From Ruminococcus sp. (GTDB taxonomy: Bacteria > Bacillota > Clostridia > Oscillospirales > Ruminococcaceae): DNA of 54,724 nt. Numbering within the stretch: the stretch's first letter is position 1; the number at the start of each line of letters is the position of its first letter. A program made the translations under genes and the position numbers. The notes under the pieces are model-generated. The model saw only the letters and a list, made by a program, of their open reading frames with translations. It ran no database searches and was not told the origin of the DNA. Of the stretch, positions 3,121-25,550 are shown one piece after another. Where the stretch lies: positions 1-54,724 of the forward strand of contig SVNJ01000001.1 in the NCBI GenBank assembly GCA_015066955.1. The letters are read 5' to 3'.

Positions 3121-3978
3121 TCATTTTATCGGTTTCATCATTTTTTTGCAAAGAGAATCATGGAATGAATTTCCTATAAGGTCAATGAATTTTATCTTAT
3201 GCCTTCCTCTGCATATTTCTATGGACTGCCCTTCCGTTAAATCGGCATAATAATCGCCGTCAATCGTTATATTCATCGGACGCATTACGTCAGAGGTCGT
3301 ATCCTTTATCAGAAGCCTTCTTTCAGCAGAAAAAAGTGTTGTTCTTGAAAAAAGCGAATGAGGACATATAAGCGTCATTTCTATACATTCAAGATCAGGC
3401 TCGATAATAGGTCCCCCCGCCGAAAGTGCATAGGCTGTTGAACCTGAGGGGGAGCTGAAAAGTGCACCGTCTGCCCTGTATCTGCCGATGAGATAACCGT
3501 CGGAGTAAACCTCAAAATCACAGATTCTCGAATTTACAGACTTCACACACACATCATTGAGTGCGGTAATTCTGCGGGTAGCTTCGCCTTCTCCGATTAC
3601 TACATCAAGTGTCATACGCTCAGAAATGTTGTATTCCCCTGTTTTCAGGCGTTTCAGCTTATCAAGCTGGTCTGCTTCAAGTCCTGCCATGAAACCCAAT
3701 GTACCTGTATTTATTCCGAGAAGCTTTGTGTCAGTACCCATAAGATGCTTTGCACAGCGAAGTATTGTACCATCGCCGCCGATAGCTATAACCACATCAG
3801 CTGTCTTTACAGATTCTGCTATAGATTCATAGTTCACTGCAGCTTTATCGGAAAACTCTCGTCGGTATTTTTCGCTTACGCATACTTCTATTCCCTCCTG
3901 TGCAAGTACATCGCATACCTCTCTTGCACAGCCGAGTGCATTTACCTTCTGAAAATTAGGGTACAGAACTGCTTTCAT
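3121..3978 (-). CDS. nadK: NAD(+)/NADH kinase
   Basis: GGDGTIL, GINTGTLGF and GSTAYALSAGG motifs; tlyA-nadK-argR-recN synteny. Confidence 0.95.
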   Translation of the reverse strand: MKAVLYPNFQKVNALGCAREVCDVLAQEGIEVCVSEKYRREFSDKAAVNYESIAESVKTADVVIAIGGDGTILRCAKHLMGTDTKLLGINTGTLGFMAGLEADQLDKLKRLKTGEYNISERMTLDVVIGEGEATRRITALNDVCVKSVNSRICDFEVYSDGYLIGRYRADGALFSSPSGSTAYALSAGGPIIEPDLECIEMTLICPHSLFSRTTLFSAERRLLIKDTTSDVMRPMNITIDGDYYADLTEGQSIEICRGRHKIKFIDLIGNSFHDSLCKKMMKPIK

Positions 3979-3990
3979 TTTTATACTCCT

Positions 3991-4776
3991 TTAAAGTTGT
4001 CTGAACGCTTCTTCGGCAAGACTTCTGAAATCATGAATAACAGGCGGTCTGCGGTCCTTTACAAGCTTTACAAGATATTCTATATTTCCGCTTCCGCCCT
4101 TTATTGGGGAATATGTGTACTTTTCCGTAAAAAAGCCTGTTGATAAAGCAAAGCTGTCAATATCCCTCAGTACCTGTTCATGTACCTTCTTATCCTTGAC
4201 AATTCCGTTTTTACCGATATTTGAGCGTCCTGCCTCAAACTGTGGCTTTATAAGCACTGCCGCACACGCACCTTCTTTAAGCAGCTCGTACATCTTCGGC
4301 AGAATCATTTTTAGCGATATAAACGAAACATCGGCACAGATAAAGTCAACCTCTCCTCCGAGAAATTCTGTTGTAAGAGTTCGTACATCAGTACCTTCAG
4401 CATTTACCACACGGCTGTCCTCACGCAGTGACTGGACAAGCTGTCCGTGTCCCACATCTACAGCAAAAACCCTTGCCGCACCGTTTTGAAGCATATAATC
4501 GGTAAAGCCGCCTGTAGACGCACCAATATCAAGACATATCGTTCCCGTAAAATCAAGACAAAATTCCTTTGCCGCCTTTTCAAGCTTAAGTGCACCTCGT
4601 CCAACATAAAGCTCGTTTTCCGCTGATACGATTTCGTCCTCATCAAGCACATCATAGGCTGGTTTAGTTACTACTTTTCCGTTAACGGTTACATTCCCGT
4701 TTTTTATCATTTCCTTTGCACGCTCTCGGCTTCGTGAAATTCCTCTTGCTACAAGCTCGCTGTCAAGCCTTGCCAT
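3991..4776 (-). CDS. tlyA: TlyA-family rRNA 2'-O-methyltransferase
   Basis: N-terminal S4-like domain, DIGASTGGFTD, DVSFIS and LIKPQFE motifs. Confidence 0.95.
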   Translation of the reverse strand: MARLDSELVARGISRSRERAKEMIKNGNVTVNGKVVTKPAYDVLDEDEIVSAENELYVGRGALKLEKAAKEFCLDFTGTICLDIGASTGGFTDYMLQNGAARVFAVDVGHGQLVQSLREDSRVVNAEGTDVRTLTTEFLGGEVDFICADVSFISLKMILPKMYELLKEGACAAVLIKPQFEAGRSNIGKNGIVKDKKVHEQVLRDIDSFALSTGFFTEKYTYSPIKGGSGNIEYLVKLVKDRRPPVIHDFRSLAEEAFRQL

Positions 4777-6685
4777 TTATCATGCTCCTTCTGCGTACAA
4801 ACTCAGCTATGGTTTCACAGGTCATTCCAAGCTTTGTAAGACTTGATTTAACAGTTGCCTGCTTTACAAAGTCATCAGCTGTAACGGTACTGTATAAACC
4901 GCTGTATGCACTTTCCGCAAGTATATTTCCGATTTTTTCGGAAATAGAACCGCTGCCCATACTCTCTTCAATGAACACAATATGCTTATAACCGATTATC
5001 TTATCAATAATTTCATCAGAAAGCGGATAGATTTTCGTAAGCTTAAGCAAATCACAGCTGATTCCGTCACCGTTAAGGATTGACTGCGCCTTGTATACTT
5101 CATTGTAGATGCGTCCATAAGATATTATAAGCGTGTCACCCTGATTATTATTGTTAAGGGTGTACTCCGTATTCAGATTGGATTTGTCAAATACGGAATC
5201 GTCCGTGCCTCTGGGGTATCTTACAGCCGCTATGCATTTATCGGTGTATATCGCCTTATTCATGCACATTTTCAGTTCCTCGTAGCATGAGGGAGAATAT
5301 ATAGTAGTGTTGGGTATTGAAGCAAGCATAGGCACATCAAGAAGTCCCTGATGAGTTTCTCCGTCCTCGCCAACAATTCCCGCACGGTCAATTCCAAGCA
5401 CAATATGAAGCTTTCCTATTGCAACATCATGTATAAGCTGGTCATAAGCACGCTGTAAAAATGTCGAATATACTGCAAATACGGGAATCTGTCCCATTGA
5501 AGCAAGTCCGCCTGCAAAGGTTACTGCATGCTGCTCCGCTATTCCGACGTCGTAAAAACGCTGTGGATGCTTTGCTGAGAAAAACTGCAGTCCTGTGCCG
5601 TACTTCATTGCCGCTGTAATTGCACATATACGCTTATCCTTATCTGCAAGCTCGGTAAGCTCCTTGCCGAAAACTGTTGAATAGCACTCATCAACCGAAA
5701 CCTCAGGATTTCCCGAAACTACGTCAAATTTTGAGATACCATGATATTCTCCGGGATTCTTTTCAGCCGGAATATAGCCCTTTCCTTTTACTGTTTTAAC
5801 ATGAATCAGTACAGGGCGGTGATAGCTCTTTGCAGTACGCAGAACCTCGTCAAGCTCAGCTATATTATGACCGTTTACAGGTCCGAGATATACAAATCCC
5901 ATATCCTCAAAAAGCGTGCTCTGCTCCAGAATTTTCGACTTGAATGAATCCTTTGCGTTCTTGATTCCTCTTGCCACAGGTGCTCCGACTACCGGAATAT
6001 TAAGCAGAGTTTTTTCAACAGCCCTCTTGGTGTTAAGGTAATTCTCGGTATTTCTCAGTGACGTAAGATAGCGTGAAAGTGCACCTACACTCTTTGAAAT
6101 TGACATATTGTTATCGTTGAGAATTACAATGAGGTTATTGTTCTTTTCACGTCCGCCGTTATTCATGGACTCATAGAACATTCCGCCTGTCATTGCGCCG
6201 TCACCTATTACGGCAACAGCATAATTCTTTTTGCCCTGCATTCTCATTGCCTCAGCCATACCTATTGCAACTGATACAGAAGTACTGCTGTGGCCGCTTA
6301 TGAATGAGTCGTGCTCCGACTCCTCAGGCTTGGGGAATCCTGAAAGACCGTCCTCCTGACGAAGTGTGGAAAACCTGTCAGCACGTCCTGTAAGGATTTT
6401 ATGTGTATAGGTCTGGTGACCTACGTCCCATACTATTTTATCATTCGGCGAATCAAAATTACGGTGAATAGCCATTGTTAGCTCTACTACGCCGAGATTG
6501 GACGCTAAATGTCCGCCTGTTTTCGAAACCGTTGAAATCAGCATTGTTCGGATTTCACTGCACAGGGAATTGCACTGTTTTAAAGACAGCTTTTTCAGAT
6601 CCTGCGGCAGATTAAGTCCGCTGATTACCGGTTTTTCGGTTACTGTTATTTTTTCCTTCATTTTATATAAAGCGTCGGAATACAT
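4763..6685 (-). CDS. dxs: 1-deoxy-D-xylulose-5-phosphate synthase
   Basis: GGHLASNLG, WDVGHQ, GDGAMTGG TPP motif, DVGIAEQHA, DGETHQG; ATG at 6685 follows AAAGGAG. Confidence 0.96.
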   Translation of the reverse strand: MYSDALYKMKEKITVTEKPVISGLNLPQDLKKLSLKQCNSLCSEIRTMLISTVSKTGGHLASNLGVVELTMAIHRNFDSPNDKIVWDVGHQTYTHKILTGRADRFSTLRQEDGLSGFPKPEESEHDSFISGHSSTSVSVAIGMAEAMRMQGKKNYAVAVIGDGAMTGGMFYESMNNGGREKNNNLIVILNDNNMSISKSVGALSRYLTSLRNTENYLNTKRAVEKTLLNIPVVGAPVARGIKNAKDSFKSKILEQSTLFEDMGFVYLGPVNGHNIAELDEVLRTAKSYHRPVLIHVKTVKGKGYIPAEKNPGEYHGISKFDVVSGNPEVSVDECYSTVFGKELTELADKDKRICAITAAMKYGTGLQFFSAKHPQRFYDVGIAEQHAVTFAGGLASMGQIPVFAVYSTFLQRAYDQLIHDVAIGKLHIVLGIDRAGIVGEDGETHQGLLDVPMLASIPNTTIYSPSCYEELKMCMNKAIYTDKCIAAVRYPRGTDDSVFDKSNLNTEYTLNNNNQGDTLIISYGRIYNEVYKAQSILNGDGISCDLLKLTKIYPLSDEIIDKIIGYKHIVFIEESMGSGSISEKIGNILAESAYSGLYSTVTADDFVKQATVKSSLTKLGMTCETIAEFVRRRSMINGKA

Positions 6686-15686: not shown

Positions 15687-16583
15687 TTATTCCTTTACAC
15701 CACCGAGAGCAACACCAGCAATGATGAACTTAGACAGAATGATGTAGATGATAACGATAGGAAGAATACTGAGTGCGATTGCAAGATAAATTGCACCGTA
15801 ATCAACGAACTTATCGGATGCCTGAATTGCAGACACCATCATCGGGAGTGTCTTCTGATTAAATTTAGAGCTGATGAGGATCATGTTAGGTGTATAGAAG
15901 TTGTTCCAGCTTGCGATGAAGGCAAAGATAGCCTGTACAGCGATAGCCGGCTTCATCATGGGAATTGCAATTGTAAGGAAGGTTCTGAACTCACCTGAAC
16001 CGTCAATTCTCGCAGCCTCAACAATGTCGAGGGGGAACGAGGACTTCATGTATGAACGCATGAAGTATACTACAGCAGGAGCTGCAATTGAAGGAAGGAT
16101 AAGAGGCCAGTATGTATCTGTCAGTTTAAGGTCGAGCATGAAGCTTACGAAACCGGCAGATGTAACCTGTACAGGAACCATCATTACAAGAAGAATAATT
16201 GTGTAGGAAATTTCCTTAAGCTTAAAGTCATAAACGTGAATACCGTATGCTGTAAGTGCAGCAAAGAAAACTGTAAATACAGTTGAGAAACCTGTGATAA
16301 TAGCAGAGTTCCTGTAACCGATAAGTACGTTAAATACAGTATTATAGTTGATGTCCTTGAAGAGTGTATCAATATTCTTCATAAGATATGTTCCCGGAAC
16401 AAATGAAATTCCGTTAGAAATATCATGATTGCCTCTTGTAGCATTTATAATAAGAATATAAATAGGTAAGAGACAAATTACTGTAAGAATTACAAACCAG
16501 ATAAAAAGGATTGTAGACTTAGTTCTGATCTTACGTGTGTAGTTAGCGTTTGAAGTGCCGTATACTGCTTTCATATTACTCAT
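15687..16583 (-). CDS. Carbohydrate ABC transporter permease (MalG-like)
   Basis: EAARIDG EAA loop, FIASWNNF, multiple TM segments. Confidence 0.92.
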   Translation of the reverse strand: MSNMKAVYGTSNANYTRKIRTKSTILFIWFVILTVICLLPIYILIINATRGNHDISNGISFVPGTYLMKNIDTLFKDINYNTVFNVLIGYRNSAIITGFSTVFTVFFAALTAYGIHVYDFKLKEISYTIILLVMMVPVQVTSAGFVSFMLDLKLTDTYWPLILPSIAAPAVVYFMRSYMKSSFPLDIVEAARIDGSGEFRTFLTIAIPMMKPAIAVQAIFAFIASWNNFYTPNMILISSKFNQKTLPMMVSAIQASDKFVDYGAIYLAIALSILPIVIIYIILSKFIIAGVALGGVKE

Positions 16584-17635
16584 ATAGTAAGACCTCCAAA
16601 CTGCTTATTTTCACGCTTTGCCTGCTGTGCATTCTTCTTACGCTGCTTCTTCTTAGCGATTTCATCCTTGTCTCTTGTGAGATAGAATGCAATACAACCA
16701 AGAATAAGAGTAATAATGAAGAGAATAACAGACGCAGCACCTGCGTAACCCATCTTAGGACTTGTTACGTCGTGGAAATATTCATAAATGTAAACCGCAA
16801 CGGTCTTGAGGTCATCGCTGACCTTCTGCGGGTCTTTATGATAAAGGAAAGGAATATCGAACATCTGGAGACCACCGATCATGGATGTTACGAGTGTATA
16901 AGCCATGATTGGGCTGAGAAGAGGAAGAGTAATCTTTCTGAATACCTGTCCTGAATTAGCGCCGTCGATGCTTGCCGCCTCAAATAATGAGGGGTTGATA
17001 CCCTGAATACCTGACATAAGCATAATCATAGTATTACCGAACCACATCCATGTCTGGATAAACATAACTACACCACGTGAAGTCCATGTATCGGTAATGA
17101 ATTTAATAGTATCATACTTTGCAGATGTCGAGTTATAATCAACAATGCCCATTTTACTGAGCAACAGGTTGAGTGAACCCGGAACATTCTCTGCCTCACC
17201 GCAAAGCTGGAGGAAGAGTACAGCAACAGATGCTGCAGTAATAATATTAGGTAAGTACATAACAATCTTGAAGAAGCCCTTGCCCGGGATCTTAAGATTA
17301 GCTTCTGTAAACCAAACAGCGAGAGAAAGAGATAAGATAATCTGAGGAATGAAGTTACCAACCCAAAGAATAACTGTATTCTGAAGGGCAATAAAGAACT
17401 TCTCATGAACCATCTTAACTGAACGGTTTCCGTCGCCGAAGAGAATTGCCTTGTAGTTATCCATGCCTACAAAGGCTTCCAACTCCTTACCATTACCATG
17501 AACACTGAGTACAAAAGTATTAATCAGCGGCCAAAGCTGGAAAAAGAAGTATACTAAGAAAAAAGGTAAGATAAAAAAGTAGCCGTACTTGGCATAGCTT
17601 ATCGATTTAATTCTTCTCTGCGCAGCTGACGCCAT
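16580..17635 (-). CDS. Carbohydrate ABC transporter permease (MalF-like)
   Basis: EAASIDGA, FRKITLPLL, GLQMFD and GYAGAAS motifs. Confidence 0.92.
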   Translation of the reverse strand: MASAAQRRIKSISYAKYGYFFILPFFLVYFFFQLWPLINTFVLSVHGNGKELEAFVGMDNYKAILFGDGNRSVKMVHEKFFIALQNTVILWVGNFIPQIILSLSLAVWFTEANLKIPGKGFFKIVMYLPNIITAASVAVLFLQLCGEAENVPGSLNLLLSKMGIVDYNSTSAKYDTIKFITDTWTSRGVVMFIQTWMWFGNTMIMLMSGIQGINPSLFEAASIDGANSGQVFRKITLPLLSPIMAYTLVTSMIGGLQMFDIPFLYHKDPQKVSDDLKTVAVYIYEYFHDVTSPKMGYAGAASVILFIITLILGCIAFYLTRDKDEIAKKKQRKKNAQQAKRENKQFGGLTI

Positions 17636-17672
17636 AACACACACCCTCTCAAAAGTAGATAAGTAAATATAT

Positions 17673-17743: not shown

Positions 17744-19252
17744 TTATTCCCAATCAAGGTCAGGAAGTGCTTCTGCTGCGAGATCCTTGAATGCTTCCTG
17801 AGTCTCTTCCCAAGTCTTTCCGCCTTCGAGGTATTCTGTCTTAACAGCTTCAACGAAGTTTGTCTTGCAGGGGTTATCGTACTCTGTGATGAGGCCCTTG
17901 AAGTCAATCTTCTGTACGTTCTCATAAAGAGGAGCGTAGATGTTCTGGTTGTCCTTCATGTTGCCTGTGATATCCTGGTTGAATACTGTGTCAGCCTTGA
18001 TAAGCTCATCCATAACAACAGAGTTGTTAACGAACTCAGGCTTAGCTGAAGCGTATGCCTTCATCTGAGCGTTGTCAACTGTAGCAGACTTGATGAAGTC
18101 CTGAGCTTCCTGAGCGTTGTCAGTCTTGGGGTTAACAACCATCCAAGTACCGCCCCAGTAGTAAGCCTGAGGACCCTGACATACAGCCCACTTACCGTAT
18201 GTTTCGCCGCCTACGCCGCCTGCAGCTGTAAGACCGAAGCCGCTGTAGCCCCATGTAGATACGAAGTAACCCATACATGTGTCGTTTGTACCAGCAGCTG
18301 TCCACTCATCTGTCCACTGGCCGTTCTTTGTAACACCGCCGCAGTCCCAGAGAGCCTTAGCTGTGTCAGCAAAGTTCTTGCAGAAGTCATCGATTACTAC
18401 CTTGTTGTCAACAACCCAAGGCTGTGTACGACCACAAGCGTATGCCTGCCAGAGACCACCAAGTGTATCAGCGAGAGCTGTCTTTCCGCCTGACTGCTCA
18501 GAAATTGTCTGTGCAGCTGCTACGAAATCATCCCATGTACCGATCTTAGCCTGCATCTCCTCAGGGCTCTTAACGCCGAGGTACTGCTCAGCAAGGTCAG
18601 CTCTGTACTGGAAGCCGCCTGCTGCAGCCTGCCATGAAACGCCCTTACGAACGCCGTTCTTATCCTTACCGATTTCATCTGTGTAGCTGTAGATCTCAGC
18701 AAAGTTAGCATCTGAGAAACCGAGGTCAGAGAGAGGAGCTGTCTTAGTATCATCGTTGATGTACTTGAGAGCCCAGTCAGCCTCTACCATGTATACGTCC
18801 ATGTCCTCGCCACCAGCGAAGATGTTGTCATACTTTTCAGAAGCTTCGCCACCCTGGCAACCCATGTTGTTGAAGTTTACACCTTCAATTTCGCCGTTAG
18901 CAACCTGCTCAACGCCTGCCTTGTAGTCTGTGATACCCTTCCACTGGCAGATGAGGTAAGGAACGTCATCACCGTTCCAAGCTGCAACTGTGAACTTGTC
19001 GCCGCCTGTAGCGAGCTTAACCTCGCCTACTTCTGTTGTCTTGCCAGCAGGTGCTGCCTCAGATTCGGACTCTGACTCAGACTCAGAAGCTGACTCAGAC
19101 TCAGAAGCTGACTCAGACTCAGAAGCTGACTCAGAAGCTGAAGATGATGATGAAGACTTAGACTCTTCCTTTTCATCACTACAACCAACGAATGCTGTAG
19201 CAGACATAACGAGTGCTGCCATTAAAGCTAATGTTTTCTTAAGATTGTTCAT
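17744..19252 (-). CDS. Carbohydrate ABC transporter substrate-binding lipoprotein
   Basis: Lipobox FVGC, Ser/Glu linker and YYWGGTW motif; upstream of two sugar permeases; codon bias suggests high expression. Confidence 0.9.
   Translation of the reverse strand: MNNLKKTLALMAALVMSATAFVGCSDEKEESKSSSSSSASESASESESASESESASESESESESEAAPAGKTTEVGEVKLATGGDKFTVAAWNGDDVPYLICQWKGITDYKAGVEQVANGEIEGVNFNNMGCQGGEASEKYDNIFAGGEDMDVYMVEADWALKYINDDTKTAPLSDLGFSDANFAEIYSYTDEIGKDKNGVRKGVSWQAAAGGFQYRADLAEQYLGVKSPEEMQAKIGTWDDFVAAAQTISEQSGGKTALADTLGGLWQAYACGRTQPWVVDNKVVIDDFCKNFADTAKALWDCGGVTKNGQWTDEWTAAGTNDTCMGYFVSTWGYSGFGLTAAGGVGGETYGKWAVCQGPQAYYWGGTWMVVNPKTDNAQEAQDFIKSATVDNAQMKAYASAKPEFVNNSVVMDELIKADTVFNQDITGNMKDNQNIYAPLYENVQKIDFKGLITEYDNPCKTNFVEAVKTEYLEGGKTWEETQEAFKDLAAEALPDLDWE
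19074..19139 (-). repeat. 18-bp tandem repeat encoding an (ESESAS)n linker
   Basis: GACTCAGACTCAGAAGCT unit repeated about 3 times plus partial copies. Confidence 0.85.
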
Positions 19253-19309
19253 TAGAATTTTCCTCCTTAAATATATATATTATATTTTAAAAATATAATA
19301 GCGTAAATA

Positions 19310-19600
19310 ATGTTTTTGCCGCCGCTTCCTCAGACATTTCATGCTAAAATGAATGTACTCACCCAAGCCTTCCTGCTTCGGTGCGCTCAGCTATATTACA
19401 AAAGGCATAGGCCTGTGTAATCTTATTCATCAAGCAACTCCCGCACGGGCGTTTCCCGTACAAAATCCATACTGTCAGCTCAGCAATCCTCCGCACAGCT
19501 TTTATTGCTTTGCAGACGTCCTCTGCTTCGGGCAATCATTCCGCATTCCGCAGAACTCAGCCATGCTCAGACCCACTCACTCGCAGTATGTGAATAACCG
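19310..19600 (-). ncRNA. Candidate structured cis-regulatory RNA in the long 5' leader of the ABC operon (family unknown)
   Basis: GC-rich block between AT-rich flanks, at least five pairing elements, five CUGAG and two CCGAAGCAG repeats, no credible ORF. Confidence 0.55.
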
Positions 19601-19687
19601 TTGTTTTTCAGTTAATTATATATGTATCAGTGTCAACATACACAACTTGTCTCAAAAACGTCACAGTTCAATTGCTTTCGTAACATA

Positions 19688-19716
19688 AATATACCGTATT
19701 TTTCGTCTAAAGTCAA
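19688..19716 (-). promoter_or_regulatory. Sigma-A-type promoter of the sugar ABC operon
   Basis: TTGACT-17 bp-TATATT. Confidence 0.65.
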
Positions 19717-19873
19717 TGCTTAAAATCGTTCTTTAATCTTTTTTGGTCGGTTTATACAAATTTATACATCTGTTTTTGTTATTTGTCACAGTTTTTTCGC
19801 GTCATTTCCGAAATAGTTACAAAACGGTTAAAATTGATATTGTTATATTTTCACCAATTATTTCCTTAATTAT

Positions 19874-20740
19874 TTACTCCAATTCGCCAACCGTTACAAA
19901 TTCAAGCATTTCAGATACCTCTTTCTGCTCAAGTTCTTCTATAAGCAAAAGCTCATAAACGTGACTGAATCCGCCTATTTTCTCCCGCAGTTCGATTATC
20001 TGCTCAGCTATTTCCTCCTCCACGTACGGCAGCAGCATAAGCTCTTCCTTTTCTGCTTCGTTAAGGTCTATCGGTGCAATATTCTCCAATGTAATTTCGG
20101 TTTCAGTATGCGGTTCTGTTGTTGTTACTGTTTCTTCTTCGCTAATTGTTTCGGTTATTTCTTCGGAAATATCCTCAGTAGTTGTTATTTCTGTCGTTAT
20201 AGGTTCTGTCGCTTTCGATGAAGGTTCGGCTGTTTCTTCTGTTTTCTGTTCCGTTACTGGTTCGATTTCGTACACAGGATTTTCTACATATATGTAAGGC
20301 TCAATATCAGAAAAAACAACCTCGCCGATTCCGTCAACATTCATTATTTCTTCTATATTGCGGAATTCTCCGTTTGTCTTGCGGTATTCTATTATCCTCT
20401 CCGCAATAACCTCCCCTATTCCGTTAAGCTTTGTAAGCTCTTCAGCTGTGGCAGTGTTGATATTTAGCCACAAATCCTCTTCTTCCGTAATTGCTTCCGT
20501 TTTCGCTGTTTCTTCGTTTTCTTTGCTTTCCTCAGATAAAGGTTCCTTTTTGTCGGAAGCATTTTTATCATTTTTAACAGCTTTATCAGTGGCTGTCTCC
20601 GTAGTTTCTGTACTGCTCTCAATAGTTATAATCATCTGCTCACTGTTCTTATCCGGACTTTTCAGCACTAAATACAATGAAACTAAAAGCAGTGCAGAAA
20701 ATGCCGCAGCTATAACCTTTAAACCGCTTTTATCAGACAT
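19874..20740 (-). CDS. comEA: ComEA-like helix-hairpin-helix DNA-binding membrane protein
   Basis: N-terminal TM, LNINTATAEELTKLNGIGEVIAERII...IMNVDGIG, and a second HhH module IDLNEAEKEELMLLP. Confidence 0.8.
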   Translation of the reverse strand: MSDKSGLKVIAAAFSALLLVSLYLVLKSPDKNSEQMIITIESSTETTETATDKAVKNDKNASDKKEPLSEESKENEETAKTEAITEEEDLWLNINTATAEELTKLNGIGEVIAERIIEYRKTNGEFRNIEEIMNVDGIGEVVFSDIEPYIYVENPVYEIEPVTEQKTEETAEPSSKATEPITTEITTTEDISEEITETISEEETVTTTEPHTETEITLENIAPIDLNEAEKEELMLLPYVEEEIAEQIIELREKIGGFSHVYELLLIEELEQKEVSEMLEFVTVGELE

Positions 20741-20763
20741 TTTCCGCACCTGCCTTTTTGATT

Positions 20764-23700
20764 TTAATATTGTCCTGTAGATATCATTGCATAGTATGTG
20801 AGAATTCCCGACGCATCGGTTGAATCTATAAATTCGTCCTCATTATAGTCACAGCCGTAAAGCTGAGTATGAGTCATTTCGGGAGTATTACCCGTACTTA
20901 CCGCCGCATAGTACGCAAGTACCGAAGAAGCGTCTGTAGAGTCAATGCTTCCGTCAGCATCCACATCACCTCTCATTTTATATGCAAGCTCAGTAAACCT
21001 CATACATGATGCAAATGCATCGTCAAGCGAGTAATAACGTACTGCTATTTCGACGCTCTCTGTGCCATTTTTCTCATAATCAAAAGCTGCATCCCACTCG
21101 ACTGCCATCGCTTTACGGAGTTCTTCCTCGTCGTTAACATTGTAACGTTTTTTCATAAGCTCGGTAAATTCAGCTGTTTCATAGCCGAAATCCGCAGCAG
21201 CTGTGTCAAGTTCATTCCTTGTTACAGCTTCATGTACAATTCCGAATTCAAGAATATCGCTGTATTCCACTTCATAATATTCGTCGGAAACTGTATACTC
21301 AGGCTCTTCAGTCGGTGCAGTTCCTGCTTCCTTTATATTAAATGTTTCAGGAATACTTGCAAATTTTCCTTCACCTGCAGCAATTTTAATGGTTACGATC
21401 TCGCCGGGAATTATTCTGAACGCCTTGTTCATTACCATTCCTGAAGTTATGTTCTGTCCGTCAATGTAACGCTTTTCAGCAGGAATATAGTCCTCGTCAG
21501 TAGGATCTGACTTGACAGCATACACCACATTATTCGCTATATCATTTGAAATGAAATTGAGCGTCTCATTGAGGTAATCTACTTCAAGCTCAGGAAGCAC
21601 TGCTCTTTCGGGTACTGTAACCTCAACATTTACACCCATACATTTAGCAGTCAGAATCTGTCCTGCGTAGTCAGATACGGACTCACCGTCATAAAAGCTG
21701 TGCCCGTCTGCCGCAGTAAGCGAGCTTGCATCGTTAAGACTTACAGTTTCATTTTCAAGGTCAAAGCTTATCAATTCACGAAAAACCTTTACAGTAACGG
21801 TAGAAGCAAGCTTATTTTCCTGTTCAAGTTCAAAGGTGAATATGTTTTCACCTGTTTTTAGCACTGAATCAGCAGTAAAAGTATTTGCTTCAATCAGTTC
21901 ACCGTTGAAGTAAACATCTGCCGCTGAAAACGGAAGAAAGCTGATGCTTTCCTCTATTCCGCCAAGAATTATTTCATAAGTATTTTCATCTATTTTTTTT
22001 GCATACTGAGCATCATAGCTTGAGCTTGAACCCGTCTTTACTGAATACATAAGGTCATTAAGCTCCGCTTTTGCGGGTATATAGGTCTTTTCGGTATATG
22101 TAGCATTATCTGTTGTTGCTGAAATAACGGTTTCTTCAGTAATTTCAATGGGTGCTTCGTAAATGGTGTACTCTCCGCCATTGATTGATACGTAAATGTC
22201 ACTGCCGTCCTTCACACTCAGTTCAACCTTTTCATCGGAGGGAACATTTCCCTCTATATGAGAAAAATCAACCGTATTCACAGGATTACCGAAGGCTTTA
22301 AGCGACATATTTCCCATAAGCACCTTAAGCTGTGTGCCGACTGCCATTTCCTCAATTTTAGCTATTTCCTCATCTGTGATAAGTCCCGTATATTCCTCAA
22401 TGAGAGCATCAAAATATGCCTGTGTTTCTTCCTCTGTGTAAAGGTAATTTTCTGAGGTTACGTCTATCCACTCTGTACCGTTTTCACTATAGAAGCTTTC
22501 ATTTTCTGCAGTAAACTCGCAAATCTGGTCATAGGAAATAAAACCGTTAAGCGTATCGTCTACCATTTCGCCGTCCTTTTCAAGAACCATGCAGGTTTCA
22601 AGGGGAAGTACAAATTTGGTGTCCTCACAGTAAAGTTTTACAACAACCGCAAAGCTCTCACCCTCTTCAACTACCACATTTTCATCAAGCTCAATTGTAA
22701 TATATCCTGTAAGGTCAGAGGTACCCTTCGTTACCGCAGAAGCAGTGCCCGATGATGGGTCTGACATATCCTTTATATCGGTATATACCGTAATCTCGTA
22801 GTCTGTGGCGGGATTGTTTATGTAGGTTGATACCGCCTCAATCTGCTGTGTTTCCTCCGCAGTGAAAACGTTTGCCATGTACGACGGCTGATTTATATCA
22901 AGATCATCGTCAGCAGACATGGTCTGTGTTGGAATAAAGCTGTCATGCTGATAATTGGTGGCATAATTGGTGTTTTCGTCAAGCTCAAATACACCGAATT
23001 CACAAAGCGACGTATCGTCATAGGATATCCAGAAGTAGCCGTTATCGCCGAAATGAGTACCCCAGCTGTTCTTCACAAGCCATGCACCTATGTTTCCAGC
23101 GAAATGTGAAGCAGTAAAATTATCGTCCCAGCCTACGATTGTTACGGAATGATTTGCAAGTCTCGGGTCGGTATAGGAATGGGTCGCATTTGAACTGGAG
23201 CTGTAGCCTTTGGTTGAATAAGAAACGTCTACTGCATGTCCATCATAAAGAAACTGCTTGACAAGATTTTTTATAGTGTCCCTGTTTGTGCCGTCCTCGT
23301 TGAAGTCGAAAAGATACGCATTTTCAAGATGATAATCAGCCATTTCGTAAAAACCCGCCGCATACTCATCATCCAAAAAAAGATTGATGTCGGGATGTGC
23401 AAGCTTGTCCTCGCTGATTGGTCCTTTCCACTGCGACCACAGATTCGTTACGATAAAGACAGTTCCGCCTGCGTCCATAAGCTCATTGGACGTCATATCG
23501 GTACTTGCAATCTGTACCCTCTCTTCGCCGTAGTACGGATAAAAAGCAGTATGCATCTCAGAAAGGTTAATTGACGGAATATACTTCATAAGGCTTGTTT
23601 CCGCACTTGCCGCAGACGCAAAGGTCCAGCATGTACCAAAGGGATTCTGATTCTTCATTGATGTGCCAAAACCTGCATCAAGAAGGTCAAAAGACTCGGG

Positions 23701-23982
23701 AAGAATTGTTTCAGTTTCCGATATACTTACATTTTCCTCAATTGCGCCATAACCTGCTACAGGTGAAAGGTCACCTACACCCTCAACGTCTTGTCCTATA
23801 AGGCTCTTGAAATTCGGTATCGCATAGGAAACCGACGCTTCACAGGAAGCAGAAAGTCTGTCCGCTGAAATAACCTCCGAGCTGAATGCGGCAAAGCTTC
23901 CTTCGGGATAAGCAGACGCCGTACCCGTTACAATCATCAATGCCGCCGATGCGGAAATTATTCGTCTTAAGTTTTTATTCAT
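20764..23982 (-). CDS. Secreted papain-family (C1A) cysteine peptidase with lectin-like domain and C-terminal dockerin
   Basis: Signal peptide; catalytic motifs QNPFGTCWTFA, NHSVTIVGWDD and KNSWG; duplicated dockerin repeats GDVDADGSIDSTDAS and DYNEDEFIDSTDAS. Confidence 0.9.
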   Translation of the reverse strand: MNKNLRRIISASAALMIVTGTASAYPEGSFAAFSSEVISADRLSASCEASVSYAIPNFKSLIGQDVEGVGDLSPVAGYGAIEENVSISETETILPESFDLLDAGFGTSMKNQNPFGTCWTFASAASAETSLMKYIPSINLSEMHTAFYPYYGEERVQIASTDMTSNELMDAGGTVFIVTNLWSQWKGPISEDKLAHPDINLFLDDEYAAGFYEMADYHLENAYLFDFNEDGTNRDTIKNLVKQFLYDGHAVDVSYSTKGYSSSSNATHSYTDPRLANHSVTIVGWDDNFTASHFAGNIGAWLVKNSWGTHFGDNGYFWISYDDTSLCEFGVFELDENTNYATNYQHDSFIPTQTMSADDDLDINQPSYMANVFTAEETQQIEAVSTYINNPATDYEITVYTDIKDMSDPSSGTASAVTKGTSDLTGYITIELDENVVVEEGESFAVVVKLYCEDTKFVLPLETCMVLEKDGEMVDDTLNGFISYDQICEFTAENESFYSENGTEWIDVTSENYLYTEEETQAYFDALIEEYTGLITDEEIAKIEEMAVGTQLKVLMGNMSLKAFGNPVNTVDFSHIEGNVPSDEKVELSVKDGSDIYVSINGGEYTIYEAPIEITEETVISATTDNATYTEKTYIPAKAELNDLMYSVKTGSSSSYDAQYAKKIDENTYEIILGGIEESISFLPFSAADVYFNGELIEANTFTADSVLKTGENIFTFELEQENKLASTVTVKVFRELISFDLENETVSLNDASSLTAADGHSFYDGESVSDYAGQILTAKCMGVNVEVTVPERAVLPELEVDYLNETLNFISNDIANNVVYAVKSDPTDEDYIPAEKRYIDGQNITSGMVMNKAFRIIPGEIVTIKIAAGEGKFASIPETFNIKEAGTAPTEEPEYTVSDEYYEVEYSDILEFGIVHEAVTRNELDTAAADFGYETAEFTELMKKRYNVNDEEELRKAMAVEWDAAFDYEKNGTESVEIAVRYYSLDDAFASCMRFTELAYKMRGDVDADGSIDSTDASSVLAYYAAVSTGNTPEMTHTQLYGCDYNEDEFIDSTDASGILTYYAMISTGQY

Positions 23983-24032
23983 GATATTCCTCCGTGATAT
24001 TATTCGGATAAGTAATCTTTTTCTATCTTTTT

Positions 24033-24061
24033 ATTATACCACACAGGAAATTATTTGTAAA
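24033..24061 (-). promoter_or_regulatory. Sigma-A-type promoter of peptidase-comEA
   Basis: TTTACA-17 bp-TATAAT with TG extension. Confidence 0.65.
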
Positions 24062-24140
24062 CGAAAAACATTCAATCGTTCATCATAAAAATCTCAATTT
24101 GTAATAAACGTAAAATATCAATCACAGGTTTTGGACATTA

Positions 24141-25550
24141 TTACCCTCTCTCGCTGAGATAAAGTGATATTCTGTTTTCAAGCATATCAGCCGCTTCTTC
24201 AGGTGATTTCTCACCGTTGATTACTGCAAGATATTCCTCTCTCGCAATGTGTATAAGCTGTGTATCGAAATACGGATTAATCTCCACGCTCATAATATAG
24301 TCCTTAATTGCCTGCTTGCTCTTTTCGTCAATCTGTGAAAGTACCTCTCCGTCAAGTGTCTGTGCAAACGGTGCATTAATGGAACTGCTGTCCCACTTGT
24401 TATACTCCATTGCACTGTCAATCACACTTTCAATTACGGGAATTCCATGCATTTTCACAGTTTCACTCAACAGATAGCCTTCATTGAAAAATTCGCAGAT
24501 AAACTCCCATGCACCGTCCTTGCAGTCGCTGTTTTCAAGAATTGCATACATCTGCATAGTTTCCGTATCAGTCACCGCACCGCAGCCGTCTGTATTCGGA
24601 TAACCGACATAAGTTATGTCAGCACCGCCGAAATCATCATAAATCTGCTGACCGACGTGAGCGTTGATTCCGCTGATGTTAATTTCACTCAATAGTGCAG
24701 TCCCCTTTTTTAGTCCGTCTGCCTCCCGCTCATATACTTCAAGTTGTTCTGTTTCGGTCATTTCACTGATATTACGTTCAATATTATGTGCATCAAGAAA
24801 ATTAAAGGCATCAAGAAATGCACTGTGAAAATCACAGGTATTATTTTCAAAATCAACGCTGTCACGTATTATTTTATAAAGCATAAAATTAGGAATGTCT
24901 GTTTTTGTATGCTGTATATTAAGAATCTGCGTATTTTCAGGCAGAGTTTCACATATTAGCGACATTTCATCCAATGTCCAGTTTTCGTACTCCTTGCCTA
25001 CAAACTCTGTTTTAGCTGCAGCAGTCCTCAATTCAAAGGTGCTTGCTATCACAGGAAGCTTTCCGTCACGCTCAAAGCCTTCAAGAACATTCGGCAGAAA
25101 AGCATCACGAGGTACACTGCCTGCATCCATAAGCGGATATAAATCGGTGAAATAGCCGTCGTCAACAATGGACATGATGAAATTTCCGTCACTTACTATT
25201 ATATCAGGACAATCACCGCTTATCATGTCCCTTTGAAGCGTCTCCCTTGCAAGAGCATCGATATCCTCGCCGTCGTCCGCTTCTGTTTCTGCGTTTTCAA
25301 GATAATTCACAAAATCAACAGTATACTTATCCGTTTCAAAACCCTTCGCCTTATTAAGGAATTCACCGCGCTGTGTTGCAATGTTTGCAACCTTGATAAC
25401 AGCCTTTTCCGAAGATGAGGATTCAGAAGATTCTGAGCGTTCCTGACTGTCGCTGATTTCTTCGTTTTCAGTCTTTCCGCAAGATACTGCTCCGAACATA
25501 AGAGTTACAGCTGCAGTAAACGCTGTGATTTTTCTTATTTTGTCTTTCAT
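24141..25550 (-). CDS. Orphan extracellular solute-binding lipoprotein (ABC SBP family 1-like)
   Basis: Lipobox AVSC, PDII, FTDLYPL, KDGAWEFI and C-terminal SPEEAADMLENRISLYLSE; no adjacent permease. Confidence 0.8.
   Translation of the reverse strand: MKDKIRKITAFTAAVTLMFGAVSCGKTENEEISDSQERSESSESSSSEKAVIKVANIATQRGEFLNKAKGFETDKYTVDFVNYLENAETEADDGEDIDALARETLQRDMISGDCPDIIVSDGNFIMSIVDDGYFTDLYPLMDAGSVPRDAFLPNVLEGFERDGKLPVIASTFELRTAAAKTEFVGKEYENWTLDEMSLICETLPENTQILNIQHTKTDIPNFMLYKIIRDSVDFENNTCDFHSAFLDAFNFLDAHNIERNISEMTETEQLEVYEREADGLKKGTALLSEINISGINAHVGQQIYDDFGGADITYVGYPNTDGCGAVTDTETMQMYAILENSDCKDGAWEFICEFFNEGYLLSETVKMHGIPVIESVIDSAMEYNKWDSSSINAPFAQTLDGEVLSQIDEKSKQAIKDYIMSVEINPYFDTQLIHIAREEYLAVINGEKSPEEAADMLENRISLYLSERG

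Follow-up and report, generated by a model that had tools for sequence, protein, structure and literature searches.

The best described counterparts of the RNA element reported here are the selective RNA processing and stabilization sites of the cip-cel operon from Ruminiclostridium cellulolyticum, one of the cellulolytic Clostridia. As described for that operon, a large stem-loop is followed by a single-stranded linker and a small protective stem-loop, the upstream stem sets the cut at a distance, and RNase Y was proposed to take part (PMC10311766). These sites are intergenic, their signal is the GC content of the stem, and the sequences at the cut sites are not conserved (PMC10311766). The hexaloops of CsrA/Rsm targets (ANGGAN) are fixed at positions 1, 3, 4, and 5 and free at positions 2 and 6, and related loops are repeated in one RNA (PMC3791407). 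ANTAR target RNAs are described as hexaloop hairpins in tandem that have A1 and G4 and precede a terminator (PMC3369931). Two more systems come from operons for sugars and plant polysaccharides. One is the long structured 5' UTR of xyl-doc in the cellulosome producer Clostridium papyrosolvens, which is described as conserved and as having terminator-like stems; it blocks expression until sugar relieves the block, and it was proposed to be a riboswitch (PMC5815224). The other comprises the internal terminators that cellulolytic Clostridia have in their ABC importers; these are RNA stem-loops by which the level of binding protein is set in sugar ABC operons (PMC9045158).

The leader that we describe here stands in front of an ABC importer operon in Ruminococcus. 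Like the cip-cel sites, it has a large stem, an unpaired linker, and a small downstream stem, according to predicted folds and covariation, and RNase Y is encoded in all five genomes searched for it. Unlike them, it has an invariant loop, it is a 5' leader in a slot that is occupied by a lacI gene in relatives, and its cut is a putative one. It shares with CsrA/Rsm targets the pattern of fixed and free positions in a hexaloop; however, the loop reads GNACAN, lies about 105 nt from the start codon, and belongs to a single locus. As in ANTAR targets, a short stem carries a hexanucleotide loop in a 5' leader, and ANTAR proteins occur in five of five genomes, but the loop has G1 and C4, there is one hexaloop, and no terminator was called. 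The xyl-doc 5' UTR is likewise a long structured leader of a plant-polysaccharide operon and is set apart by its published description. The internal terminators lie 3' of the gene for the solute-binding protein (SBP), whereas our element lies 5' of it. We found no published description of the leader among titles and abstract openings (subscription journals lie outside this coverage). Ruminococcus is absent from the main text of three genome-wide motif surveys, and also from one supplement file of PMC8632094. The leader is apparently an undescribed RNA family that is confined to one genus.

We analyzed a window of 54,724 nucleotides, the whole stretch of DNA under study, from a Ruminococcus sp. 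genome. The leader lies on the minus strand between the promoter and the SBP gene, which is followed by two ABC permease genes (Table 1). Transcription is predicted to start at about position 19681, for a leader of about 429 nt. The operon is likely to encode an importer of cello-oligosaccharides or β-glucans, because the one solved relative of the SBP is a putative cellobiose-binding protein (PDB 8bfy, E 9e-9) and because GH94, GH1, GH9, GH3, or GH16 genes adjoin homologous operons. The SBP had no match in Pfam; its single-sequence structure prediction was set aside (pLDDT 39.7). Nearly all named relatives, at 53–71% identity, carry the label Ruminococcus, R. flavefaciens FD-1 among them. After its signal peptide the SBP has a long Ser/Glu low-complexity linker that is encoded by short tandem repeats (19059–19160). 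The window also holds a gene for a papain-family protease with lectin-like and dockerin domains (20764–23982), and a similar gene lies 5' of the same promoter in relatives. UUUAAG before the Shine–Dalgarno sequence can pair with CUUAAG in codons 4–5 (window 19234–19271) in six of eight clades, with no covariation.

Table 1. Coordinates of the leader, its DNA surroundings, and the importer genes in the window, in the order of transcription.
Feature	Position	Strand	Basis or remark
Conserved upstream DNA site TTAACCGTTTTGTAAC, TTAC-N6-GTAAC-like inverted repeat	19816..19831	-	also in lacI-bearing L017
Sigma-70-type promoter TTGACT-17-TATATT	19688..19716	-	common to leader-bearing and lacI-bearing genomes
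P1 5' arm AAGCAAUU	19670..19677	-	just 3' of predicted start; resembles left half of palindrome in lacI-bearing L161
Domain I, variable multibranch, enclosed by P1	19440..19669	-	predicted fold
Domain I sub-parts: hairpin, domain, hairpin	19596..19668, 19467..19592, 19442..19462	-	
Domain I loops GGACG and AAACG	19512..19526, 19442..19462	-	predicted fold
P1 3' arm AGUUGCUU	19432..19439	-	pairs with AAGCAAUU; predicted fold, clade folds
P2 hairpin AUUACA...UGUAAU, short apical stem	19395..19421	-	pattern match in 61/122 leaders; clade folds
P4 long imperfect arm	19318..19391	-	constrained fold; clade folds
Invariant GAGUACAUUC, consensus GA-GNACAN-UC hexaloop hairpin	19351..19360	-	loop 106 nt before start codon
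G-poor single-stranded linker, candidate cleavage zone (putative cleavage)	19301..19317	-	
P5 AU-rich hairpin adjoining ribosome site	19278..19300	-	also in lacI-to-SBP spacer
Shine–Dalgarno AAGGAGG	19262..19268	-	sequence
SBP gene, likely for cello-oligosaccharides or related β-glucans	17744..19252	-	502 aa
ABC permease 1	16580..17644	-	PF00528
ABC permease 2	15687..16583	-	PF00528

The leader has orthologs throughout the genus. From 139 loci we obtained 123 distinct promoter-to-start stretches; eight others were duplicates and eight could not be parsed (three hold lacI, two are truncated by the end of a contig, and in three the -10 box is a variant and the leader follows the same plan as the rest). 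Since one of the 123, L017, holds lacI, 122 distinct orthologous leaders remain, 188–560 nt long. They form 57 sequence clusters, and their cores are mostly unalignable. Promoter and ribosome site were both recovered in the 123 parsed loci. Of 160 other genus genomes, 149 gave a DNA match to the promoter end and/or the ribosome-site end; the middle almost never matched. The fold energy lies below the mean of the leader's own shuffles in 122 of 122 leaders, and in 109 the sense strand gives the better fold of the two strands. For the window leader z is -3.54 (0 of 100 shuffles as low), and it is -2.02 for positions 19310–19610. With the AT-rich ends trimmed and one leader taken per cluster (14 shuffles each), the median z is -2.7; 42 of the 57 reach -2 or lower and one is above zero. 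Each of nine clade alignments contains 10–23 compensatory pairs.

These leaders share a common plan, in which P1 encloses the variable domain I and is followed by P2, the long P4 arm, the G-poor linker, P5, and the ribosome site. Of 61 leaders, 49 have a P1 helix of at least 6 bp to the stretch before P2; control windows gave 12 and 10. In the 18 nt before P5 the G content across leaders is 7%. P5 is predicted with at least 8 bp in 118 of 122 leaders and shows compensatory changes within clades. RNAalifold recovered the apex hairpin alone from an all-genus 3' alignment, because P5 was misregistered in it. The two shortest leaders (L075 and L085, 188 nt) lack the invariant motif described below and are natural loss-of-motif controls. 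A locus labeled Alistipes (L149) has the motif in its leader and an SBP that groups with those of the genus; the record is likely mislabeled or misbinned.

The first-pass annotation had seen in this region a structured cis-regulatory RNA of several domains that had not been described before, and had named conservation and covariation in relatives as one way to check it. This part of its proposal is borne out by the 122 orthologous leaders, by promoter and hairpin being conserved genus-wide, and by the covariation of the flanking pairs. Its promoter, about 429 nt before the SBP start, is confirmed and was recovered across the genus, and all of the helices that it named are in the predicted fold. 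It had not recognized a T-box or a SAM, TPP, cobalamin, glycine, or c-di-GMP riboswitch, and a scan of the window against Rfam 15, as it had asked for (T-box, riboswitches, and Weinberg motifs included), gave no match at the gathering score; positions 19000–20200 and 20 orthologous loci gave only sub-threshold, chance-like matches. The GC-rich core is real as well (GC 0.42–0.58 in 19320–19619 vs 0.17 and 0.35 in the flanking bins). The flanks are AT-rich in composition as claimed, but the 5' flank is itself paired, through P1 and the hairpin next to it (Table 1). Where no credible open reading frame had been noted, an antisense frame of 111 codons exists (19353–19688, plus strand), with no Pfam match. 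The repeats that had drawn attention are present in the window (CUGAG five times, CCGAAGCAG twice) but private to its species. Among the 122 leaders the median number of CUGAG is zero and only six leaders have two or more; CCGAAGCAG is in three leaders, twice in the window alone; CCGAAG is in 12; and GGA occurs 12 times in the window against a leader median of eight. Non-conserved repeats had thus been picked out, and the invariant GAGNACANUC hairpin and its link to lacI had been missed.

Conserved letters in the leaders are confined to one hairpin and the block around the ribosome site, and in this hairpin only eight positions reach at least 90% conservation. In the window it spans 19347–19364, where GAGNACANUC caps P4. 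In a zone 85–150 nt before the ATG, GAGNACANUC is exact in 109 of the 122 leaders, has one mismatch in seven, and is absent from six; its distance to the ATG is 97–138 nt (median 107). Nine leaders have a second exact copy beyond this zone, in each case in domain I of one clade. A GA-GNACAN-UC hexaloop hairpin is found in 107 sense leaders and in none on the antisense strand. Loop positions 1, 3, 4, and 5 are fixed and positions 2 and 6 are free; each of the four bases occurs at position 2 (G in 53 of 116). Changes in the flanks come in compensating pairs, G-U included. We measured covariation on 82 of the 116 motif leaders (no more than two from any cluster; 76 distinct): pairing holds in 84% of cells, with 58 double changes, whereas controls slid along the alignment reach at most 45%. 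No shuffle equaled this result; the shuffle test can be inflated by relatedness, a fault of which the slid control is free.

The pair probability of the hairpin exceeds 0.5 in 87 of the 116 leaders; in 18, including that of the window, it is below 0.1. In the window leader, the conserved fold costs 1.2 kcal/mol over the minimum, and its pair probability within that leader's ensemble is 0.01; hence the case for the hairpin there is a comparative one. A hairpin previously placed at 19334–19356 does appear in the predicted fold, but it overlaps the conserved hairpin and competes with it. In its own genome the 10-mer has 63 copies, and the leader copy alone has four extra pairs. A pattern search of that genome for a regulon gave no other convincing leader, with a crude map of reading frames that classed the window leader itself as coding. 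We also looked for a wider family with a model of the hairpin (R1) in 121 genomes of the order and rejected it: 28 are hit at E ≤0.2, which is near chance, 13 of 14 inspected loci lie in frames of more than 240 codons, and one (L215) is the tail of a replication-type gene. A leader peptide through the motif was rejected too, as no frame is consistently open and the distances are spread over all three phases.

In related bacteria a lacI gene stands before the importer, and in most Ruminococcus its place is taken by a folded RNA leader carrying a near-invariant hairpin that occurs in the lacI tail as well. In five genus genomes (G033, G102, G163, G021, and G168) a LacI-family gene comes after the same promoter, and a short P5-bearing spacer separates it from the SBP gene. 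Two outgroup loci (L161 and L162) have the same gene order and a comEA-like neighbor as in the window, and lacI also precedes the SBP gene in more distant loci. A lacI ortholog (E ≤1e-40) is present in at least six of 161 genus genomes; the sixth (46% identity) precedes a different binding protein. Among the matches listed, no ortholog turned up in leader-bearing genomes with the query used; the best 13 candidates at most were scored per genome, so that the absence applies to this query.

A covariance model of the hairpin matched inside lacI of G033. The motif lies in all five genus lacI tails, four times exactly, at the codons for K-E-D-I-P, 146–156 nt before the SBP ATG. Six of seven outgroup lacI tails are without it, and one has a one-mismatch match at another place. 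Every one of the five genus tails uses AAG for K, GAG for E, and GAC for D. The same fixed state is found elsewhere at one of 15 K, three of 14 E, and four of 18 D conserved sites, in a test that was made after the fact on five related genes. The motif flanks of leaders and lacI are 25–26% alike, which is no more than chance, so that descent of the leader motif from lacI rests on position and the 10-mer; searches of the leaders for lacI remnants with tblastn and blastn gave nothing significant. Because the motif occupies the last codons of lacI and no lacI ortholog was found in leader-bearing genomes, an RNA signal inside the repressor gene appears to have survived the loss of that gene. In a quick SBP tree (68 rows, basal fork open) the lacI-bearing outgroups fall outside the genus, and L058, a leader-bearing locus with an unrelated leader, is sister to the lacI clade. 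This position suggests that lacI was lost more than once. The L058 leader (genome G131) is 560 nt long, AT-rich, and made of long hairpins that are unrelated to other leaders; 141 nt ahead of the start it has a GGACAU loop, at a distance close to that of the motif in lacI tails.

Upstream of the -35 box, about 120 bp of DNA are conserved at fixed spacing between the window (19721–19831) and orthologous promoters. They hold the TTAC-N6-GTAAC-like repeat, TGTTGAAA.TGTACA, and ATTAAAGAACGAT, and are present in lacI-bearing genomes too. The conservation of this DNA suggests the target of a transcription factor, for which the TTAACCGTTTTGTAAC site is a likely binding site. In L161 a palindrome that resembles a LacI-family operator covers the start site in the first transcript bases; most genus leaders match its left half only, and a stretch like this half is now the P1 5' arm.

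That the region is transcribed can be seen in R. flavefaciens FD-1, at whose locus (L154; predicted start ~3574, linker 3928–3948, ATG 4001) one RNA contig of run X1 joins the leader to the SBP gene and runs into the first permease gene (3585–6037). Contigs start at 3585 (X1), 3593 (X9), and 3554 (X7), from three studies, and at 3592 (X12) and 3618 (X11). Against a clean start, the X7 contig begins inside the promoter and an X6 contig extends upstream (depth 319). In X12 and X6 the 5' half of the leader is on contigs of depth ~20,000–25,000, against 450–466 for the operon, or ~40–50×, whereas X2, probably a DNA run, gives one flat contig. In X1, X7, X9, and X11 the leader differs from the gene about two-fold or not visibly, or lies on one contig with it. 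Depth is thus unequal in two of six RNA runs, judged from contigs only, and we take the excess of the 5' half over operon RNA as a hint only, because parts of a gene cannot be ranked by contig depth and a single campaign may have produced both X6 and X12. By a rough mass bound, the deep piece has its 3' end at ~3803–3912, from P2 into P4 and before the linker, which fits a cut or stop near P2–P4 as well as or better than a cut in the linker. One X12 record (record 9, 3592–3782) has a back-joint from 3777 to 3592 at a 5-nt repeat, as in a 186-nt circle of domain I. We rejected a circular RNA; the joint may be rare or a library artifact, because the linear path is equally deep.

What does the hairpin do? 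Processing and stabilization fit best, because the signal sits in the lacI tail and in the free leader alike, and in each setting a linker and a protective hairpin lie downstream of it. We favor this explanation tentatively, at somewhat less than even confidence. A protein or nuclease complex, possibly RNase Y or a partner of it, would read the GA-GNACAN-UC hairpin, and the transcript would be cut upstream of P5, the hairpin next to the ribosome site. The products would be a protected importer mRNA and a stable leader fragment, and the amount of importer would be set in this way. The variable 5' domain would mainly shield the 5' end. For the history of the locus, we infer that lacI is ancestral and was then lost, probably more than once. 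The hairpin would have originated in the lacI tail as an RNA signal, and a cut there would have yielded much binding protein and little repressor; after the loss of lacI the hairpin would have been kept and rebuilt into a long arm. Several observations do not sit easily with this proposal. First, the invariant loop is left unexplained by the cip-cel precedent, since the signal there is stem GC content and cut-site sequences are not conserved. Second, the deep piece in FD-1 ends before the linker, and four runs (X1, X7, X9, X11) lack a strong leader excess. Third, the motif is missing from six of the 122 leaders, and in 18 of 116 the hairpin is improbable in the predicted ensemble.

One could also argue that the leader is a regulated one. 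In this case an RNA-binding protein would read the GNACAN hexaloop together with the related RNAC pentaloops of domain I and, depending on sugar supply, switch premature termination, decay, or translation; the protein would be titrated by the 5' RNA that is released, and RNA control would have taken over from LacI. Such a leader stays alive as the main competitor, if an unlikely one, because the loop is invariant and the leader excess is variable (the ratio of leader to gene depth differs between RNA runs). The loop's fixed and free positions mirror those of CsrA/Rsm hexaloops (PMC3791407), and lacI orthologs are missing from the matches listed in leader-bearing genomes. Related loops also occur in the 5' part of the leader: G[AG]-RNAC(N)-YC hairpins are found there in 33 of 122 leaders, against two on the antisense strand and a shuffle mean of 1.8. 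Their pentaloops are AAACG, AAACU, GGACG, and GGACU, and many are inherited within clades. However, there is no candidate protein. CsrA was found in none of 25 genus genomes (the control was positive in three known genomes), the CAT RNA-binding domain of BglG/LicT antitermination in none of five (control positive in four), and RRM proteins in none of five. Moreover, the hairpin is single-locus in its own genome, no terminator was called in the window, no switch helix recurs across the eight clades, P2 matches in half of the leaders, 61 of 122, and the conserved upstream DNA sites could supply regulation instead.

A joint account of history and function, which we hold to be just as doubtful as the regulated leader, is that the repressor was replaced by an RNA regulator from its own message. 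The hairpin in the last codons of lacI would have outlived the gene, multiplied into related loops, and come to bind an undescribed sequence-specific RNA-binding protein, while the abundant released 5' half would attenuate or titrate control of a fiber-sugar importer in rumen and gut Ruminococcus.

Alternatively, any well-folded filler may have been selected for nuclease resistance after the loss of lacI, with the loop as a favorable cap. The cores turn over almost fully and yet fold well, the sense strand mostly folds better than the antisense strand, and the sister of the lacI clade has an unrelated, AT-rich folded leader, all of which a passive stabilizer would account for. We consider it distinctly unlikely nevertheless: it leaves unexplained an invariant loop at near-fixed distance, a motif in lacI with fixed synonymous codons, and a leader minimum of ~188 nt.

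It is highly improbable that the loop is a pairing seed for a trans-acting small RNA. Hfq is encoded in five of five genomes and the loop is predicted to be exposed, but position 2 of the loop accepts any base and position 6 is variable. A covarying partner in cis was not seen either: within the leader and 60 coding bases, hexamer complements of the loop number eight, against 8.1 for swapped loops, and pentamer complements number 33 against 23 for one pentamer and 26 against 31 for the other, at scattered positions.

The riboswitch that had originally been among the proposals, for a sugar, a sugar phosphate, or a second messenger, we now regard as slightly less probable still. A long structured leader ahead of a transporter is a natural place for one, and the sugar-relieved xyl-doc 5' UTR was proposed to be one (PMC5815224). 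A metabolite riboswitch is poorly supported here because invariance is limited to one small hairpin and because a terminator/antiterminator or anti-Shine–Dalgarno switch does not recur as an expression platform across eight clades, although switches specific to single clades may exist. There are no conserved junctions, the cores fall into 57 clusters, Rfam gave no match, and the hairpin core also occurs inside a coding sequence.

The remaining two readings carry very little weight. As a transcription-factor or roadblock site in the DNA, GAGNACANTC would explain a short conserved word with inverted symmetry at its edges, but this is very unlikely given that the flanks change in compensating pairs and that, across leaders, the word keeps within a narrow range of distances from the start codon but lies at distances from the promoter that differ by hundreds of bases. 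A CsrA-binding or kink-turn scaffold, first suggested by the 12 GGA and five CUGAG of the window leader, is scarcely credible and fails because those repeats are peculiar to the window, none of the 25 genus genomes yielded CsrA, and the conserved loop is GNACAN rather than ANGGAN.

The locus is a traceable case of a cis-acting RNA element that some species have within a protein-coding gene and their relatives have as a free leader. Because both states exist in sequenced genomes, the birth of a bacterial regulatory RNA is directly testable here. The ten-letter hairpin is without a known reader, and the leaders provide a natural series of more than 120 variants for probing. Family-level covariance searches could miss RNAs of this kind, because structure is kept and sequence is not. 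R. flavefaciens is a principal cellulose degrader of the rumen. Since R. flavefaciens belongs to the same genus and the operon probably encodes a cello-oligosaccharide importer, control of the importer may bear on fiber use.
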